A DNA stretch of 5,665 bases from a virus (IMGVR_UViG_2534682307_000021); one strand, 5' to 3'. Positions 1-5,585 are shown, numbered from the stretch's first letter. The notes: generated by a model not told the origin, from the sequence alone. Numbers and translations: made by a program.

Positions 1-58
1 AGTCGATCACCCTGGACACCGCCCCCCGTCTCATTCGTAGAAAATTTTGCTTTTCAAA

Positions 59-80
59 AAAGTTACACGAAAAGTTACAC
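59..80 (+). promoter_or_regulatory. Two direct 10-bp iterons AAAGTTACAC (59-68, 71-80) directly upstream of the terS-like gene; candidate operator or TerS/pac recognition element
   Basis: Exact 10-bp direct repeat with 12-bp start-to-start spacing, 13 nt upstream of the GAGG RBS (93-96) and ATG 103. The same motif recurs inside the downstream gene at the same 12-bp phase. Confidence 0.4.
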
Positions 81-102
81 CCCCTCAAAACGAGGTTTTT
101 GC

Positions 103-591
103 ATGGCATTAACGACCAAAAAAAAGCGGTTTGCTGATGCGTTATCAAGGGGCGCAAATCCCACGGAAGCCGCTATACATGCGGGATACAGCGAAAAGAC
201 CGCAAGGGTTAAAGGCTGGCAGCTATCCAACGATCCTGAGGTGAAAAAGTATCTTAAGGCTGTAACTTCTGATGTAACTTTTCAGGTTACAAAACCGAAA
301 AAAGTTACAAAGAAAGTTACCGAAAAAGTTACACCGGAACGGGCATCAATTAACACCATTGAGATGATGGATAACGGCCTACCCGACCCCATCAAAGCAA
401 TGGGCAGGATACTGATTGACAACATGGACACAGATCCAAAACTGGCTTTAGATGCCGCGTTTAAGCTGGCCCAGTTCACCCACCGCAAGATCGGCAGCAT
501 TGGGAAAAAAGAGGTTAAAAAACTCAATGCCGCTAGTGTCTACTCAAATCGGTTCCCCATCCCTAAGCCACCAACAGACTTAAAACACTGA
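103..591 (+). CDS. Terminase small subunit-like protein (Terminase_2 / phage P27-type N-terminal DNA-binding domain), 162 aa
   Basis: ORF with GAGG RBS 6 nt upstream. N-terminus KKKRFADALSRGANPTEAAIHAGYSEKTARVKGWQLSNDPEVKKYLK fits the conserved TerS HTH pattern (KQxRF..EY...N.T.AAI.AGYS.KTA....LL.N..V..YI) as I recall it. Size is typical for TerS. Not verified by a search. Confidence 0.7.
   Translation: MALTTKKKRFADALSRGANPTEAAIHAGYSEKTARVKGWQLSNDPEVKKYLKAVTSDVTFQVTKPKKVTKKVTEKVTPERASINTIEMMDNGLPDPIKAMGRILIDNMDTDPKLALDAAFKLAQFTHRKIGSIGKKEVKKLNAASVYSNRFPIPKPPTDLKH
262..334 (+). repeat. Array of six GTTAC/GTAAC cores at 12-bp phase inside the terS-like gene (two inverted, four direct; three full AAAGTTAC[A/C] iterons at 301, 313, 325)
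   Basis: Cores at 262, 274 (GTAAC), 286, 304, 316, 328 (GTTAC); spacing 12,12,18,12,12. Encodes a (x-V-T-x)n stretch AVTSDVTFQVTKPKKVTKKVTEKVTPE. Last iteron AAAGTTACACC (325-335) matches the upstream copy at 71-81. Confidence 0.55.
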
Positions 592-602
592 GGTAGCGAA
601 CT

Positions 603-764
603 ATGAGCGAATACATCACAGACCCTATTGATGTACTCACGGAAATCATGAACGACAAGCAGCAGTCGACCGAAATACGGTTACAGGCCGCCGCTGTTCT
701 GATGCCATATTTTCACGAAACACTAAACCCGTGCTTCCAGGAGGAGGAAGAAGATGATCTGTAA
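603..764 (+). CDS. Hypothetical small acidic protein, 53 aa (MSEYITDPIDVLTEIMNDKQQSTEIRLQAAAVLMPYFHETLNPCFQEEEEDDL); not in the supplied ORF track
   Basis: ATG 603 is 9 nt after GAGG (590-593). The ORF is open to TAA 762-764 and overlaps the next gene start (754) by 11 nt, suggesting translational coupling in a terS-X-capsid operon. No family recognised. Confidence 0.4.
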   Translation: MSEYITDPIDVLTEIMNDKQQSTEIRLQAAAVLMPYFHETLNPCFQEEEEDDL

Positions 765-1677
765 AAACATGAAAGGCGTGTCAGCAGTTCGCGCCGCCAG
801 CGTGCTGGCATCGTGTAAATTTAGCCATGCTGACGCTATAGAGATGACGAAAAGAAATGATCCGGCAGTATCGAAATTTCTTGAAAAATCCATCGTCAAC
901 AGAATGACTACGGATAACATGCCGTCGCTGGTGGCAGAGCCGATAGTAAGAGAGCTTGGCGAGTATATTTTTTCGCAGTCTGTACCAGGCAAGCTAATCA
1001 GCAGCGCGCTTAATCTTCCGTTTGGCGCAAAATTGCATTCAATATCAGGCAAGGGTAGTAAATGGCTTAAAGAAGCCGAAGAAATCCCTGTCAAAGAGGG
1101 AGAAGTAAACGAAAGTGCGCTAAAATTGTGCAAACTTGGCGCTATTGTGATGCTGAATAACGAGCTAATCAAATTTAGCACCCCTGGTACAAATTCAGCG
1201 ATCAGAGACTTGATCACATCGGAATCGGTGAAAGAAATAGATAAAAAATTTCTTTCCAGTGATCAGGAGGTGGCTGGCGTATCCCCTGAGGGCGTGCTTA
1301 ATGGTGCTGATGAGGCCGAAAACTTCATAGAGATTTTCAAAAAGCACATAGCGAACGGTAACACGCTTTCCACGTCGTCGCTAATATTGCCCGTAGAAAA
1401 CGCCTTACAGCTTACTGATGCTGAGTTCTGGCAGATAGAGCTTTTGAGAATACCGGTAATTGTGAGCGAACAGGCGGATCGCATGATGCTGATAGACGCT
1501 CAAAAGCTGATTATTAACGTTGAAGCCACGGTTATAACCCCAACTGATGAGGCGGTAATAAAAACCGAATCAGGGGCGGTTAGCCTTTTCCAGAATGACG
1601 CTACAGCGTTCAGGGCAATCACCTATTGCGGATGGCAAAAACTCGATAAGGCCGTCACCGTTCTGGCGAAAAGCTGA
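754..1677 (+). CDS. HK97-fold major capsid protein-like (Phage_capsid family), 307 aa, no N-terminal delta/scaffold domain
   Basis: Strong RBS AGGAGGAGG (739-747) 6 nt before ATG 754; in-frame alternative ATG at 769. Middle segment WLKEAEEIPVKEGEVNESALKLCKLGAIVMLNNELIKF and C-terminus GAVSLFQNDATAFRAITYCGWQKLDKAVTVL follow the conserved layout of HK97-family capsid proteins (compare recalled 80alpha-type YWVGEGQKIE...AFKLGVILPVTKEF and PVNLFEQDMVALRATMHVAL...AFAKL). Recognition from memory, not a search. Confidence 0.6.
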   Translation: MICKNMKGVSAVRAASVLASCKFSHADAIEMTKRNDPAVSKFLEKSIVNRMTTDNMPSLVAEPIVRELGEYIFSQSVPGKLISSALNLPFGAKLHSISGKGSKWLKEAEEIPVKEGEVNESALKLCKLGAIVMLNNELIKFSTPGTNSAIRDLITSESVKEIDKKFLSSDQEVAGVSPEGVLNGADEAENFIEIFKKHIANGNTLSTSSLILPVENALQLTDAEFWQIELLRIPVIVSEQADRMMLIDAQKLIINVEATVITPTDEAVIKTESGAVSLFQNDATAFRAITYCGWQKLDKAVTVLAKS

Positions 1678-1693
1678 TTTTTCCAGCATCTAT

Positions 1694-1719
1694 CCCGATA
1701 TGGGGATCACCATATCGGG
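1694..1719. repeat. Perfect palindrome P1: CCCGATATGG-GGATCA-CCATATCGGG (10-bp arms, 6-bp centre containing GATC)
   Basis: Read directly; the arms are exact reverse complements. Lies 16 nt after the capsid-like gene stop, with no following T-tract, so not a typical intrinsic terminator. Confidence 0.85.
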
Positions 1720-1722
1720 GAA

Positions 1723-1805
1723 GCACCTGAATCATCATTACCGTGATCAAGGGTATGTAAAGCCCACCAGCCTGATTAACGTTTAACCGGAAAAAAAGCC
1801 AGGTA
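1723..1805. repeat. 83-bp direct repeat DR-A, copy 1
   Basis: GCACCTGAATCATCATTACCGTGATCAAGGGTATGTAAAGCCCACCAGCCTGATTAACGTTTAACCGGAAAAAAAGCCAGGTA; 81/83 identical to copy 2 at 2260-2342. Confidence 0.85.
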
Positions 1806-1813
1806 TCCAATCT

Positions 1814-1835
1814 CGATATGGGGATCACCATATCG
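1814..1835. repeat. Palindrome P2: CGATATGG-GGATCA-CCATATCG (second copy of the P1 palindrome, 8-bp arms)
   Basis: Same arms and centre as P1; lies 8 nt after DR-A copy 1. Confidence 0.85.
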
Positions 1836-1899
1836 GGATACGGCGGTAACTGGTTGATATTTTCGAAATTCGCCAGCGGCGAACATCGGGGAAACCAGC

Positions 1900-1918
1900 C
1901 TAACCCGTTGATTCTTCC
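1900..1918. repeat. 19-bp conserved box, copy a (CTAACCCGTTGATTCTTCC)
   Basis: 18/19 identical to copy c and 16/19 to copy b; abuts the hairpin at 1918-1944. Confidence 0.7.
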
Positions 1919-1944
1919 CAATTTCCACAGACTGCGGAAATTGG
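1918..1944. repeat. Inverted repeat / hairpin CCAATTTCC-(9 nt)-GGAAATTGG
   Basis: 9-bp perfect arms with a 9-nt loop, read directly. Confidence 0.75.
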
Positions 1945-2026
1945 CGCGGTAACTTACTGAGATTAAAGCAAAGCGCAAAATTGCGTTGGCTGGTGGGCCT
2001 GATGCCGATAACTGGTTGGAATTGTT

Positions 2027-2050
2027 CCATAGTGCAAAATTGCACTATGG
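2027..2050. repeat. Palindrome CCATAGTGCAA-AA-TTGCACTATGG (11-bp arms)
   Basis: Read directly. Shares the core CAAAATTGC with a weaker palindrome at about 1971-1983 (GCGCAAAATTGCG). Immediately precedes box copy b. Confidence 0.75.
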
Positions 2051-2051
2051 C

Positions 2052-2070
2052 CTAACCCATTGATTATTTC
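2052..2070. repeat. 19-bp conserved box, copy b (CTAACCCATTGATTATTTC)
   Basis: 17/19 identical to copy c; followed by palindrome CCCCCA-T-TGGGGG (2076-2088). Confidence 0.65.
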
Positions 2071-2105
2071 GAAAACCCCCATTGGGGGATGTTGGGAAAG
2101 TAAGA

Positions 2106-2124
2106 CTAACCCATTGATTCTTCC
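2106..2124. repeat. 19-bp conserved box, copy c (CTAACCCATTGATTCTTCC)
   Basis: Followed by palindrome CCTCAA-T-TTGAGG (2130-2142). A further palindrome TGGTCAT-A-ATGACCA lies at 2174-2188. Confidence 0.7.
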
Positions 2125-2259
2125 ACAATCCTCAATTTGAGGAGATCGGAAACATCACCCTTCAAATTCTGAATGGTCATAATGACCACGCAGACCATCA
2201 AGGCAACCACAACGAACATCGTTACGGTTGGAGCTTTTACCCCACTGGGGAAAAGGTAC

Positions 2260-2342
2260 GCACCTGAATCATCATTACCGTGATCAAGGGTATGTAAAGG
2301 CCACCAGCCTGATTAACATTTAACCGGAAAAAAAGCCAGGTA
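2260..2342. repeat. 83-bp direct repeat DR-A, copy 2
   Basis: 81/83 identical to 1723-1805 (mismatches at 1764/2301 and 1781/2318). Followed by a degenerate P copy (2343-2364, GTGGGGATACCCATATCGGGG) and preceded by palindrome CCCCA-C-TGGGG (2241-2251). Confidence 0.85.
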
Positions 2343-2425
2343 GGTGGGGATACCCATATCGGGGAACATCCACCAGCTTCATAACGGATGGCCGGAAAAT
2401 GATAACGGTTAAAGCGTGTTGATCT

Positions 2426-2455
2426 TTGTTCGTGGTTGTTCGATATTGTTCGTGA
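2426..2455. repeat. Three tandem 10-bp iterons TTGTTCG-NNN (TTGTTCGTGG, TTGTTCGATA, TTGTTCGTGA)
   Basis: TTGTTCG at 2426, 2436, 2446 at exact 10-bp (one helical turn) phasing; a weaker copy lies just upstream (about 2416-2424). Confidence 0.7.
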
Positions 2456-2458
2456 AAC

Positions 2459-2482
2459 GGTGTAGTTAATGGTGTAGTTAAT
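2459..2482. repeat. Perfect tandem duplication of 12-mer GGTGTAGTTAAT
   Basis: Two identical adjacent 12-mers, followed by an AT-rich tract (2483-2575) containing palindrome GATAG-TTAT-CTATC (2556-2569). Confidence 0.75.
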
Positions 2483-2655
2483 TTCGCTGTTTTTGACGGA
2501 GTTGTTATTTGTAACATAGTGAAAAATAAAGACTAATCAATGAAATGTTATAAATGATAGTTATCTATCATGTGGAGTAGATTGGTCAGGCAAATAAGCT
2601 CTTGTCAGCGGCAGGGCGTTCTGCCGATAACCGTAACCGAAGATGATAACTGACA

Positions 2656-2976
2656 ATGGGTAAAACGAACGACTGGCTGGACTTTGATCAACTGGCGGAA
2701 GAAAAAGTTCGCGACGCGCTAAAACCGCCATCTATGTATAAAGTGATATTAGTCAATGATGATTACACTCCGATGGAGTTTGTTATTGACGTGTTACAAA
2801 AATTCTTTTCTTATGATGTAGAACGTGCAACGCAATTGATGCTCGCTGTTCACTACCAGGGGAAGGCCATTTGCGGAGTCTTTACCGCCGAGGTTGCAGA
2901 AACCAAAGTGGCGATGGTGAACAAGTACGCGAGGGAGAATGAGCATCCATTGCTGTGTACGCTAGAAAAAGCCTGA
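2656..2976 (+). CDS. clpS: ClpS, ATP-dependent Clp protease adaptor (N-degron recognition), 106 aa
   Basis: Translation [51 protein letters not shown]... matches E. coli ClpS as I recall it; conserved position directly upstream of clpA. Confidence 0.95.
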
Positions 2977-3006
2977 ATGCAGGCATAAAAATTGGGGGAG
3001 GTGCCT

Positions 3007-5283
3007 ATGCTCAATCAAGAACTGGAACTCAGTTTAAATATGGCTTTCGCCAGAGCGCGCGAGCACCGTCATGAGTTTATGACCGTCGAGCACTTGTTAC
3101 TGGCGCTGCTCAGTAACCCATCTGCCCGGGAGGCGCTGGAAGCGTGTTCTGTGGATTTGGTTGCGCTCCGTCAGGAACTGGAAGCCTTTATTGAACAAAC
3201 CACACCCGTTCTGCCTGCCAGTGAAGAGGAGCGCGACACACAGCCGACGCTGAGTTTTCAGCGTGTACTGCAACGTGCGGTCTTCCATGTCCAGTCCTCC
3301 GGTCGCAATGAGGTTACCGGTGCAAACGTTCTGGTCGCTATCTTTAGCGAACAGGAGTCGCAGGCGGCATATCTGTTGCGTAAACATGAAGTCAGCCGTC
3401 TCGATGTGGTGAACTTTATCTCTCATGGCACGCGTAAAGACGAGCCGACACAGTCTTCTGATCCTGGCAGCCAGCCAAACAGCGAAGAACAAGCTGGTGG
3501 GGAGGAACGTATGGAGAATTTCACGACGAACCTGAATCAGCTTGCGCGCGTGGGCGGAATCGACCCACTGATTGGTCGTGAGAAGGAGCTGGAGCGTGCT
3601 ATTCAGGTTCTCTGCCGTCGCCGTAAAAACAACCCGCTGCTAGTGGGGGAATCTGGTGTCGGTAAAACCGCGATTGCAGAAGGTCTTGCCTGGCGAATTG
3701 TTCAGGGCGATGTGCCGGAAGTGATGGCTGACTGTACGATTTACTCTCTCGATATCGGTTCTCTGTTAGCGGGCACAAAATATCGCGGCGACTTTGAAAA
3801 ACGTTTTAAAGCGTTGCTCAAGCAGCTGGAGCAGGACACTAACAGCATCCTGTTTATTGATGAGATCCACACCATTATCGGTGCGGGTGCAGCGTCTGGT
3901 GGTCAGGTTGATGCGGCTAACCTAATCAAACCGTTGCTCTCCAGCGGTAAAATTCGCGTAATTGGTTCGACAACCTATCAGGAGTTCAGCAACATTTTCG
4001 AGAAAGACCGTGCTCTGGCGCGTCGCTTCCAGAAAATTGATATTACTGAACCGTCGATCGAAGAAACTGTTCAAATCATCAATGGCCTGAAACCGAAGTA
4101 TGAAGCACACCACGACGTGCGTTATACCGCAAAAGCGGTGCGTGCGGCGGTAGAGCTGGCGGTGAAATACATTAACGATCGTCATCTGCCGGATAAAGCC
4201 ATTGATGTTATCGACGAAGCGGGCGCTCGCGCACGTCTGATGCCGGTAAGCAAACGCAAGAAAACCGTTAATGTGGCGGATATTGAGTCCGTGGTGGCCC
4301 GTATTGCACGCATTCCAGAGAAGAGTGTTTCTCAGAGTGACCGCGATACCCTGAAAAACCTCGGCGATCGCCTGAAAATGCTGGTCTTCGGTCAGGATAA
4401 AGCCATTGAGGCGCTGACTGAAGCCATTAAGATGGCGCGTGCAGGTTTAGGTCACGAACATAAACCGGTCGGTTCGTTCCTGTTTGCCGGCCCTACCGGG
4501 GTCGGGAAAACAGAGGTGACGGTACAGCTTTCGAAAGCTTTGGGCATTGAGCTTCTGCGCTTTGATATGTCCGAGTATATGGAACGCCATACTGTCAGCC
4601 GTCTTATTGGTGCGCCTCCGGGATACGTTGGTTTTGATCAGGGCGGTTTGCTGACTGATGCGGTCATCAAGCATCCACATGCGGTGCTGCTGCTGGACGA
4701 AATCGAGAAAGCGCACCCGGACGTGTTCAATATTCTGTTGCAGGTGATGGACAACGGTACGCTGACCGATAACAACGGACGCAAAGCGGACTTCCGTAAC
4801 GTGGTACTGGTGATGACCACTAACGCCGGGGTACGGGAAACTGAGCGCAAATCCATTGGTCTTATCCACCAGGATAACAGCACCGATGCGATGGAAGAGA
4901 TCAAGAAGATCTTTACACCGGAATTCCGTAACCGTCTCGACAACATTATCTGGTTCGATCATCTGTCAACTGACGTGATCCATCAGGTGGTGGATAAATT
5001 CATCGTCGAGTTGCAGGTTCAGCTGGATCAGAAAGGTGTTTCTCTGGAAGTGAGCCAGGAAGCGCGTAACTGGCTGGCCGAGAAAGGTTACGACCGGGCA
5101 ATGGGCGCACGTCCGATGGCGCGTGTCATCCAGGACAACCTGAAAAAACCGCTCGCCAACGAACTGCTGTTTGGTTCGCTGGTGGACGGCGGTCAGGTCA
5201 CCGTCGCGCTGGATAAAGAGAAAAATGAGCTGACTTACGGATTCCAGAGTGCACAAAAGCACAAGGCGGAAGCAGCGCATTAA
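3007..5283 (+). CDS. clpA: ClpA, ATP-dependent Clp protease ATP-binding subunit (AAA+ unfoldase, two nucleotide-binding domains), 758 aa
   Basis: Translation from ATG 3007 ([24 protein letters not shown]...) matches E. coli ClpA. Two Walker A motifs ([16 protein letters not shown]). RBS GGGGGAGG at 2994-3001. The ORF-track start at 2992 is rejected because it would place the RBS inside the coding sequence. Confidence 0.95.
3502..3513 (+). promoter_or_regulatory. Internal Shine-Dalgarno (GGAGG 3502-3506) plus in-frame ATG (3511-3513, Met169) within clpA; candidate internal initiation site for the short ClpA isoform
   Basis: SD-like GGAGG 4 nt upstream of an in-frame ATG at codon 169. E. coli clpA is reported to produce a shorter ClpA65 product from an internal start. 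Confidence 0.45.
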
Positions 5284-5497: not shown

Positions 5498-5585
5498 GTT
5501 CACTGCCGTACAGGCAGCTTAGAAATTCACTGGTAACATACTCCACCCGCCCACCATGTTCACTGCCGTACAGGCAGATAAAATG
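5498..5585 (+). CRISPR. Orphan type I-F CRISPR mini-array: 28-bp repeat, 32-bp spacer, degenerate terminal repeat; no cas genes in window
   Basis: Repeat 1 (5498-5525) GTTCACTGCCGTACAGGCAGCTTAGAAA matches the E. coli/Yersinia type I-F repeat, including the CTGCC-GTACA-GGCAG Cas6f hairpin. Spacer 5526-5557 TTCACTGGTAACATACTCCACCCGCCCACCAT. Repeat 2 (5558-5585) matches the first 20 nt, then diverges (23/28). Location downstream of clpA fits the known E. coli I-F locus position. Confidence 0.85.

Follow-up and report, generated by a model that had tools for sequence, protein, structure and literature searches.

A classical phage-inducible chromosomal island beside clpS in Escherichia coli, with a cos, terS and capsid homolog module akin to that of Shiga toxin-converting phages

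The window analyzed here is a stretch of 5,665 nucleotides filed under a viral record (IMGVR_UViG_2534682307_000021), and it is Escherichia coli chromosome, with clpS at 2656-2976 and clpA at 3007-5283. Positions 1-2655 are 100% identical to O157:H7 strain FRIK2455, to O103:H2 strains and to others, and the FRIK2455 region (L001) was the source for the part of the element that lies left of the window. The att cores and the empty site of K-12 delimit an island of 9,468 bp between yljB/cspD and clpS, and window positions 1-2570 are its right-hand end. Integration took place at the 3' end of yljB, where K-12 carries one copy of the att core; in the alignment, this empty site matches the window from 2550 on. 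Arm-type repeats of the integrase are found inside both ends of the island. An earlier note on this DNA had let the island end at 1677, which places the boundary too far to the left, because about 870 bp more belong to the island up to the attR core. The three open reading frames (ORFs) that it reported at this end of the island exist exactly as it described them, all on the plus strand (Table 1).

The same note expected the island to continue leftward beyond the window, and it does so. The gene order in L001 is a tyrosine integrase, a gene for a protein of 257 aa, AlpA, Icd-like and DUF4222 genes, a primase of 584 aa, iterons, three small genes and then a module with the order cos, AGTTAC repeats, terS, orf53 and capsid homolog, with transcription of the island running rightward. 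In Pfam the integrase has the domains Arm-DNA-bind_3 and Phage_integrase, the product of the AlpA gene (L001 15355-15579) matches Phage_AlpA (PF05930; E 3.4e-16, 59.3 bits for a cut-off of 21), and the primase has D5_N, DUF5906 and Pox_D5 domains. Directly 3' of the primase stop codon lie three direct and three inverted iterons of the GCCCTCTACC type (L001 18951-19178), a stretch that is a candidate replication origin. De Sousa et al. (10.1101/2022.09.14.508007) define the classical phage-inducible chromosomal island (PICI) by an integrase, AlpA/MerR/Stl, a primase-replicase, capsid morphogenesis and a small terminase, and put its median size at 9.5 kb. In the island we find an integrase bounded by att sites, AlpA, a primase with adjacent iterons, a small terminase and a capsid-morphogenesis component, and the size. 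Since it agrees with this definition in its genes and in its size, the island is a classical PICI, and every PICI feature that can be computed was found in it. The idea of a phage satellite, and not of a standard prophage, is therefore well founded (integrase, AlpA and primase left of the window, and neither lysis nor tail genes), whereas that of a novel reduced element has to be abandoned, since the island fits the core set and the median size of the class. As a kind of PICI, it leaves the understanding of satellites unchanged, being an ordinary member by definition and size.

Table 1. Position of the features of the island in the window (attL core in L001)
Feature	Position	Strand	Basis or remark
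Right part of the island cos region	1-50	+	Block kept in the island, Stx1 phage, L008 and L010
AGTTAC pair with 12-nt spacing, between cos and terS	56-81	+	Candidate cosB-like TerS binding sites
terS, 162 aa	103-591	+	Pfam Terminase_2, phrog_641
Five AGTTAC and GGTTAC, both orientations, 12-nt phase, in the terS linker (VT..VT.. codons)	258-339	.	Candidate TerS binding array
orf53, 53 aa, net charge about -11, EEEEDDL tail	603-764	+	phrog_641 profile, conservation
HK97-fold major-capsid-protein homolog, 307 aa, without protease domain	754-1677	+	PF05065, AlphaFold/Foldseek
Right arm, about 870 bp, island-owned, non-coding	1678-2549		Palindromes, direct repeat, hairpin units, arm-type repeats
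attR core ATAAATGATAGTTATCTATCA	2550-2570	+	Direct repeat of attL core; right island boundary, then chromosomal DNA and clpS (2656)
attL core ATAGATGATAGTTATTTATCA	L001 13082-13102		21-nt direct repeat of attR core

The first gene of the module codes for a small terminase subunit (TerS). Its N-terminal helix-turn-helix (positions 1-55) matches Terminase_2 of Pfam (PF03592; 42.4 bits for a cut-off of 26.1, E 1.4e-10), and phrog_641 is matched over the full length (positions 1-156 of 162, E 1.5e-43). With the TerS of the Stx1a phage Stx1_14040 (L004), the gene of which adjoins terL, the island protein has 47% identity; the central segment GLPDPIKAMGRILIDNMDTDPKLALDAAFKLAQFTH is near-identical in the two proteins and a C-terminal NRF.P.PP motif is common to both, with a divergent linker. 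A Shine-Dalgarno sequence stands ahead of each of the three module genes. Overlapping, coupled starts had been proposed for all of them; this holds for orf53 and the capsid gene, which overlap by 11 nt, the start of the latter lying behind AGGAGGAGG, but not for terS and orf53, which are 11 nt apart with a GAGG that overlaps the terS stop codon. The ratio of nonsynonymous to synonymous substitution rates (dN/dS), computed for the module genes against one 85%-identical copy (L014), is 0.13 for terS, 0.19 for orf53 and 0.16 for the capsid homolog, values which indicate that all three genes are under purifying selection.

The acidic protein coded by orf53 is kept at 51-53 aa in eight variants, with identity down to 53%. 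It matches positions 87-126 of the phrog_641 profile (E 3.5e-7; the homolog in the divergent satellite L008 does so with E 4.9e-9), and in hhalign it aligns to TerS residues 90-130 (E 6e-4). From these profile matches, orf53 has the look of a small-terminase core, with the central helices but no DNA-binding domain, followed by an acidic tail. Such a protein could modulate the assembly of small terminases, for example by disabling the helper TerS in the manner of Ppi, and it could do so by building mixed inactive oligomers with it, by analogy with Ppi or Rpp. This role is doubtful at present, and is put forward from the analogy.

The product of the third gene matches PF05065 with 28.4 bits (cut-off 24.2), and its AlphaFold model, computed from an alignment of 30 sequences, has a pLDDT of 87.6 and a pTM of 0.84. 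In PDB and BFVD, the top Foldseek matches are all encapsulins or capsid proteins of the HK97 fold (lowest E 2e-11), and they include the capsids of Bxb1, Muddy, 80alpha/SaPI1 and HK97, procapsid chains of SaPIbov5 (7rwz) and encapsulins. At E <= 0.001 the PDB gives 250 matches, of which the best 50 are all capsid or encapsulin shells. The Terminase_2 and HK97 folds that the earlier note had predicted for the module are thus both found. An alignment of 338 columns pairs the capsid homolog, with 25% identity, with residues 291-625 of the 645-aa Peptidase_S78/Phage_capsid fusion of the phages discussed below as helpers; this stretch takes in the capsid half of the fusion and some 80 residues ahead of it, but not the protease. 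The delta domain had been described as lacking; the homolog indeed has no protease and only a small part of the N-terminal half of the fusion, but it retains about 80 N-terminal residues, and these form six predicted helices that align to fusion residues 291-370. An exhaustive profile search recovers a small family of stand-alone proteins of 315-330 aa (about 15 cluster representatives below 1e-30), which then merges into ordinary capsid proteins and protease-capsid fusions. By its homology, the protein is a candidate for capsid morphogenesis or interference. It may co-assemble or compete with the helper capsid protein and so alter the capsid size or poison the heads, as SaPIbov5 Ccm would suggest, a possibility to which we give somewhat less than an even chance.

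The module (positions 1-1677) is present at full length and with at least 95% identity in 220 of the 5,426 complete E. coli genomes, mostly of O157:H7, O26, O103, O111 and O121, and an identical module is found in strain 2014C-3061. The backbones that carry it differ in integrase and replicase and occupy at least three integration sites. No gene for terL, portal or protease lies between terS and the capsid gene, as had been noticed before, nor elsewhere in the island (ORF list and annotation), and the island gene list is also free of lysis, tail, head-tail adaptor/connector, HNH and lambdoid regulatory genes. Such a gene content could also come about if the module were the degraded remnant of an ordinary prophage that has lost terL, portal and protease and in which the genes left behind are functionless. 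RefSeq labels them merely as phage terminase small subunit and phage major capsid protein, and the capsid homolog corresponds to no more than the C-terminal half of a fusion of phage protease and capsid. This is nonetheless exceedingly improbable for a module which is intact in those 220 genomes with no partial copies among the matches, in which all three genes are under purifying selection, and which is carried by PICI backbones with different integrases and replicases. The gene order, moreover, recurs in elements that are only 48-53% identical (L008), and the island has clean att repeats with an empty-site counterpart and is devoid of the tail, lysis and lambdoid regulatory genes.

The complete HK97 fold with its helical N-terminal extension brings up a second possibility, that of a capsid-forming PICI (cf-PICI) in which the 307-aa protein builds the shell of the satellite itself and only the tails or a few parts are obtained from a helper, and it is true that some of the right-arm DNA is common to the island and a true cf-PICI. 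The earlier note had named this class as one of two options. However, portal, protease, head-tail adaptor/connector, HNH and TerL, which are defining for cf-PICIs, are all absent from the island, while a true cf-PICI (L003) has all the defining genes. A shell without portal would also need the portal of a helper for filling or tail joining, which leads to a mixed capsid, that is, to a helper-directed packaging like the one proposed below. For these reasons, very little credence can be given to a self-made shell.

The window opens inside a non-coding block of about 85 nt that is common to the island (L001 19968-20060), to the Stx1 phage (L004 7706-7795) and to the divergent satellites L008 and L010. 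The block has a run of 8-11 G, about 30 nt and then CCYGGACACCGCCCCCC.TCTCA...AGAAAA, and in the island it extends some 45 nt beyond the left edge of the window, up to a run of nine G. Between island and phage, the non-coding DNA upstream of terS is more conserved than terS itself. For the induced Stx1 phage Lys8385Vzw, PhageTerm called packaging by cos, with cohesive 3' ends and CGCCCCCCCT as cos (PMC7946995). The record of its virion genome starts and ends inside the block, at ...GGACACCGCCCCCCCT|CTCACGCAG (also written ...GGACACCGCCCCCCCT | CTCACGCAGAG...), and CGCCCCCCGT at 20-29 of the window matches 9 of the 10 bases of the phage cos. CGCCCCCCGT thus corresponds to the 3' cohesive end of the helper type, the island has a near-copy of the cos core of these phages, and the published virion termini of a related phage allow its cos to be placed to within a few bases. 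The window starts in the middle of this cos, so that the module begins with cos at the left edge of the window, a feature that had escaped the earlier note. A lambda-type cosN (GGGCGGCGACCT) was also considered for the island and rejected: it is absent save for a chance match inside the primase gene, and in the E. coli PICI EcCICFT073 two copies of it flank rppA. This search rules out a lambda-type cos, and means that the right-arm DNA shared between such islands is not the cos.

Just left of the window (L001 19613-19972), two small genes coding for 64 and 53 aa lie directly before cos, and the 53-aa product of this pair ends in ...EVEGLISLLGE. Both genes are kept in the divergent satellites L008 and L010 and have no significant family match; they may be part of the packaging module.

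AGTTAC is found 10 times in the window, where 1.75 copies are expected and none of 200 shuffles reaches 10, and seven of the copies fall within 61-332. They make up the pair between cos and terS, both copies of which are also found in L014 and in a module-bearing PICI beside yejM (L012), and the array in the linker of terS. When the terS genes of the window and L014 are compared, 1 of 96 nt differs in the repeat segment, against 49 of 489 nt for the whole gene, which points to a constraint on the DNA itself. At the equivalent place between cos and terS, the Stx1 phage has five GTTAAC. The AGTTAC array fits a cosB-like element that would be read by the cognate TerS. In the satellite L010 (2891-3054), which carries a capsid homolog and neither terS nor orf53, the conserved cos block is followed by GTTAAC-type repeats like those of the Stx1 phage, and this satellite presumably uses the TerS of the helper itself.

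Arrays of repeats within the terS gene are a common feature of pac sites. For this reason, we have to consider that TerS reads the AGTTAC array as a pac site within its own gene and starts headful packaging there, as in P22, SPP1 and the pac-type pathogenicity islands of Staphylococcus aureus (SaPIs), and that the upstream block is no cos at all. The repeats in terS are indeed the most constrained DNA of the module. Against this, packaging in the related phage is of the cos type and leaves a defined 3' overhang of 10 nt that falls within the shared block, and the block is kept in four divergent elements, one of which has no terS. The helper type has in addition an HNH gene beside terS, and the HNH protein was tied by the cf-PICI paper to packaging initiation in one cos-type phage family. 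A headful mechanism is quite unlikely given these observations.

For TerS as for the capsid homolog, a tblastn search against 50,697 phage records leads to one set of phages as nearest phage relatives, namely Stx1a-, Stx2c- and some Stx2a-converting phages and PPompW prophages of enterohaemorrhagic E. coli (EHEC). The head module of Stx1_14040 has the order HNH (PF01844), terS, terL, the 645-aa Peptidase_S78/Phage_capsid fusion and portal. From this homology, the most likely helpers are lambdoid phages of EHEC with an HNH-terS-terL-protease/capsid module, that is, Stx1a- and Stx2c-converting phages and PPompW phages. Each of the 60 listed carriers has 2-10 places that match a composite query of the module with the helper terS/terL, hence 1 to 9 beyond the module itself, while the module alone matches a median of one place per genome; the additional places should be helper-type terminase genes, which all the carriers inspected would then have. 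About 23% of all the genomes searched have such genes. In the literature searched, the coverage of which was incomplete, no paper that links a PICI to Stx phages was found.

Taken with the cos block shared with the phage and with co-residence in the same genomes, the homology to the phages leads us to propose helper-dependent induction, packaging, transfer and interference for the island. It is very probably a classical PICI the packaging of which is directed by its own TerS at its own cos and carried out by a helper. A helper with a head of the Stx1a/Stx2c/PPompW type would induce the island, which would be excised and would replicate as concatemers. The island TerS would bind its own AGTTAC array beside cos, and the helper-like core and C-terminus of this TerS would recruit TerL and HNH of the helper, leading to a cut at the island cos. 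The island DNA would then be packaged in heads made by the helper and receive helper tails.

Several points weigh against this proposal. Induction, excision, packaging, transfer and interference are, for this island, wholly inferred from sequence. The recognition helices of the two TerS are near-equal (KTARVKGWQL in the island and KTARVKGSQL in the phage) and AGTTAC differs from GTTAAC by one base, so that a distinct DNA specificity of the island TerS can be taken only as a candidate. The divergent L008, which has a different TerS, contains no AGTTAC-type repeats, and this limits the repeat model to the lineage of the window, L012 and L014. The likeness of orf53 to TerS is seen in profiles only, since pairwise BLASTP of orf53 against the island or phage TerS gives no match. 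The co-occurrence of module and helper prophage is confounded by phylogeny, given that most carriers belong to lineages of Shiga toxin-producing E. coli (STEC) that are rich in such prophages. As for the capsid homolog, deletion of c1499, a capsid homolog of EcCICFT073 and the single E. coli precedent put to the test, did not relieve phage interference, and EcCICFT073 packages in full-size capsids (PMC6092414); this means that the capsid homolog of an E. coli PICI need not redirect size. In sequence, c1499 is unrelated to the 307-aa protein.

The fact that all three module proteins mimic parts of helper proteins is also what would be expected of an island that is mainly anti-phage, in which TerS, orf53 and the capsid homolog act as decoys and disrupt the assembly of Stx-type phages, whether incoming or resident, while the island itself hardly moves or does not move at all. 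Interference with helpers is, moreover, an established trait of PICIs. Nonetheless, integrase, att sites, replicon and cos have all been retained, the many lineages and several integration sites imply mobility, and interference and transfer do not exclude each other in PICIs. None of the three module proteins, nor the product of the 257-aa island gene, matches a PADLOC model. A mainly defensive island is highly unlikely. Within the proposal of helper-directed packaging by the island TerS at its own cos, we suggest tentatively, and with a chance well short of even, that the module is an uncharacterized strategy of piracy on HNH-dependent cos phages, including Shiga toxin-converting phages, which would combine the cos core of the helper, an own TerS with its AGTTAC array, a stand-alone mimic of the TerS core, the acidic tail included, that would disable or re-program the small terminase of the helper, and a capsid paralog without protease that would alter head assembly.

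The features of the island can be set beside those of known satellites. Like the classical PICIs of Gram-negative bacteria (Fillol-Salom et al. 2018, PMC6092414; SatelliteFinder model, de Sousa et al. 2023), it has int, AlpA, primase with ori, a capsid homolog, terS, about 9.5 kb and rightward transcription, with site-specific integration and no genes for lysis, tail, portal or TerL. It differs from them in that terS precedes the capsid homolog, an order named for just one common SatelliteFinder variant, and in the extra 53-aa gene with likeness to the TerS core. The pair of terS and capsid homolog has already been reported for PmCI172 of Pasteurella multocida, also a small island, where small capsids are made and the homolog of the major capsid protein was proposed to be responsible, and a capsid homolog was reported for EcCICFT073 (PMC6092414). 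Host and helper of PmCI172 are different; the particles of its helper have long contractile tails, whereas the phages implicated here have genes of the siphophage type (a comparison made by description), and the cos-type arrangement inferred for the island is not described for PmCI172.

EcCICFT073 (L011) shares the int-alpA-pri backbone and carries homologs of helper capsid proteins, c1499 and c1500 (PMC6092414), and its cos adjoins the gene of the protein that reads it (L011 2559 and 3309, around rppA). It has, however, no TerS and uses RppA to re-program the TerS of lambda and phi80, and its cosN is lambda-like while that of the island is like that of the Stx1 phage. In BLASTP, RppA (L011 2660-3091) gives no significant alignment with the island TerS, the only module protein with which it was compared; the profile matches of orf53 and of the capsid homolog point to the TerS and capsid families. 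Among the staphylococcal islands, SaPIbov5 is also packaged by cos and codes for a homolog of the HK97-fold capsid protein of its helper, Ccm, which is 24% identical to that protein (25% for the homolog described here) and occupies the pentamers of small capsids. SaPIbov5 differs in being Gram-positive and in carrying the cos of the helper without a TerS, and the size redirection demonstrated for Ccm is conjectured for the island. The pac-type SaPIs (SaPI1, SaPIbov1) have, like the island, a small terminase of their own that redirects the TerL of the helper, and their small second protein Ppi, which blocks the helper TerS, offers a possible analogy to orf53. They are headful systems, in contrast with the cos-type site of the island and the HNH required by its helper. 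The cf-PICIs of the EcCIEDL933 type also parasitize HNH-dependent cos phages, and they share with the island the int-alpA-rep backbone and part of the right-arm DNA. They encode capsid, protease, portal, connectors, HNH, TerS of the P27 family and TerL, whereas the island encodes only a TerS (Terminase_2/phrog_641) and the capsid homolog. The island combines the cos-type packaging of SaPIbov5 and EcCICFT073 with an own TerS as in the pac-type SaPIs. If true, this solution of a cos with an own TerS would join the four already described, namely the helper cos only (P4 and cos-type SaPIs), Rpp, the pac-type TerS with Ppi, and the full packaging module of cf-PICIs.

The island provides a concrete satellite-helper pair in EHEC that can be tested, with Stx1a- and Stx2c-converting phages among the likely helpers, and the genes of its module are three clear candidates for a role in redirecting packaging and in interference. 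Should it lower the yield of Stx phages or spread with these phages, the island bears on the epidemiology of Shiga toxin phages. Were the suggested piracy to hold, some 4% of the complete genomes of E. coli, most of them STEC, would carry an element able to lower the production and spread of Stx1a and Stx2c phages.

Related islands differ in what they carry and where they sit. The PICI beside yejM (L012) bears the module with another integrase and an AAA_25 replicase. In E. coli 90-3040 (L015, NZ_CP027459.1; 2347-12848), a PICI with identical TerS, orf53 and capsid homolog and a different integrase sits inside the terL of a helper-type prophage, in the codons of ...LIPKKNSKST..., a P-loop-like segment. 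The two halves of this terL overlap by 17 nt, and the terS of the prophage has an internal stop. The junction with terL was found in 1 of the 5,426 genomes, that of strain 90-3040 only; the position of this PICI in such a prophage speaks for the helper link, but as an anecdote. In O145:H28 strain RM12581 (L002, 556-11500), an allelic PICI with the same integrase and AlpA proteins occupies the cspD/clpS site, and there an unrelated 629-aa fusion of ClpP-protease and capsid (Phage_capsid_4) and a 93-aa phrog_1561 gene replace terS, orf53 and the capsid homolog. In such islands, the right-hand module seems to be exchangeable and matched to the helper.

Between the capsid homolog and attR, the right arm of the island contains ORFs without any PHROG match and was for this reason treated as non-coding. 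A 26-nt palindrome, CCCGATATGGGGATCACCATATCGGG, is present in two copies (1692-1719 and 1810-1837) and one degenerate copy (2345-2363). A direct repeat of 88 nt (1718-1805 and 2255-2342) recurs at a distance of 537 nt, and there are three units in which TAACCCATTGATT is followed by a variable hairpin. The arm-type repeats of the integrase lie at 2417-2489, and the TGTTCG/GGTGTAGTTAAT repeats of the right arm recur beside attL (L001 13181-13253). Pieces of the right arm are common to the right ends of EcCICFT073, of a cf-PICI and of other PICIs, with 72 nt at 100% identity in the case of EcCICFT073. The right arm was also considered as a slot for cargo, given a 788-aa ORF that follows the module in L012; this ORF codes for an AIDA/pertactin autotransporter that sits past the last DNA in common with the island and is probably chromosomal, and the idea was dropped because of this position.

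Scans for promoters and terminators were uninformative, since sites were no commoner than in shuffles. A search of the whole window against Rfam gave no match in 1-2700, and elsewhere the matches are sub-threshold chance ones and repeats of the clustered regularly interspaced short palindromic repeats (CRISPR) type past clpA. The latter are two CRISPR-DR4 (RF01317) matches on the plus strand downstream of clpA, at 5498-5525 and 5558-5585, 60 nt apart, with 50.1 and 29.7 bits for a gathering score of 35, and the pair looks like the remnant of a short CRISPR array.

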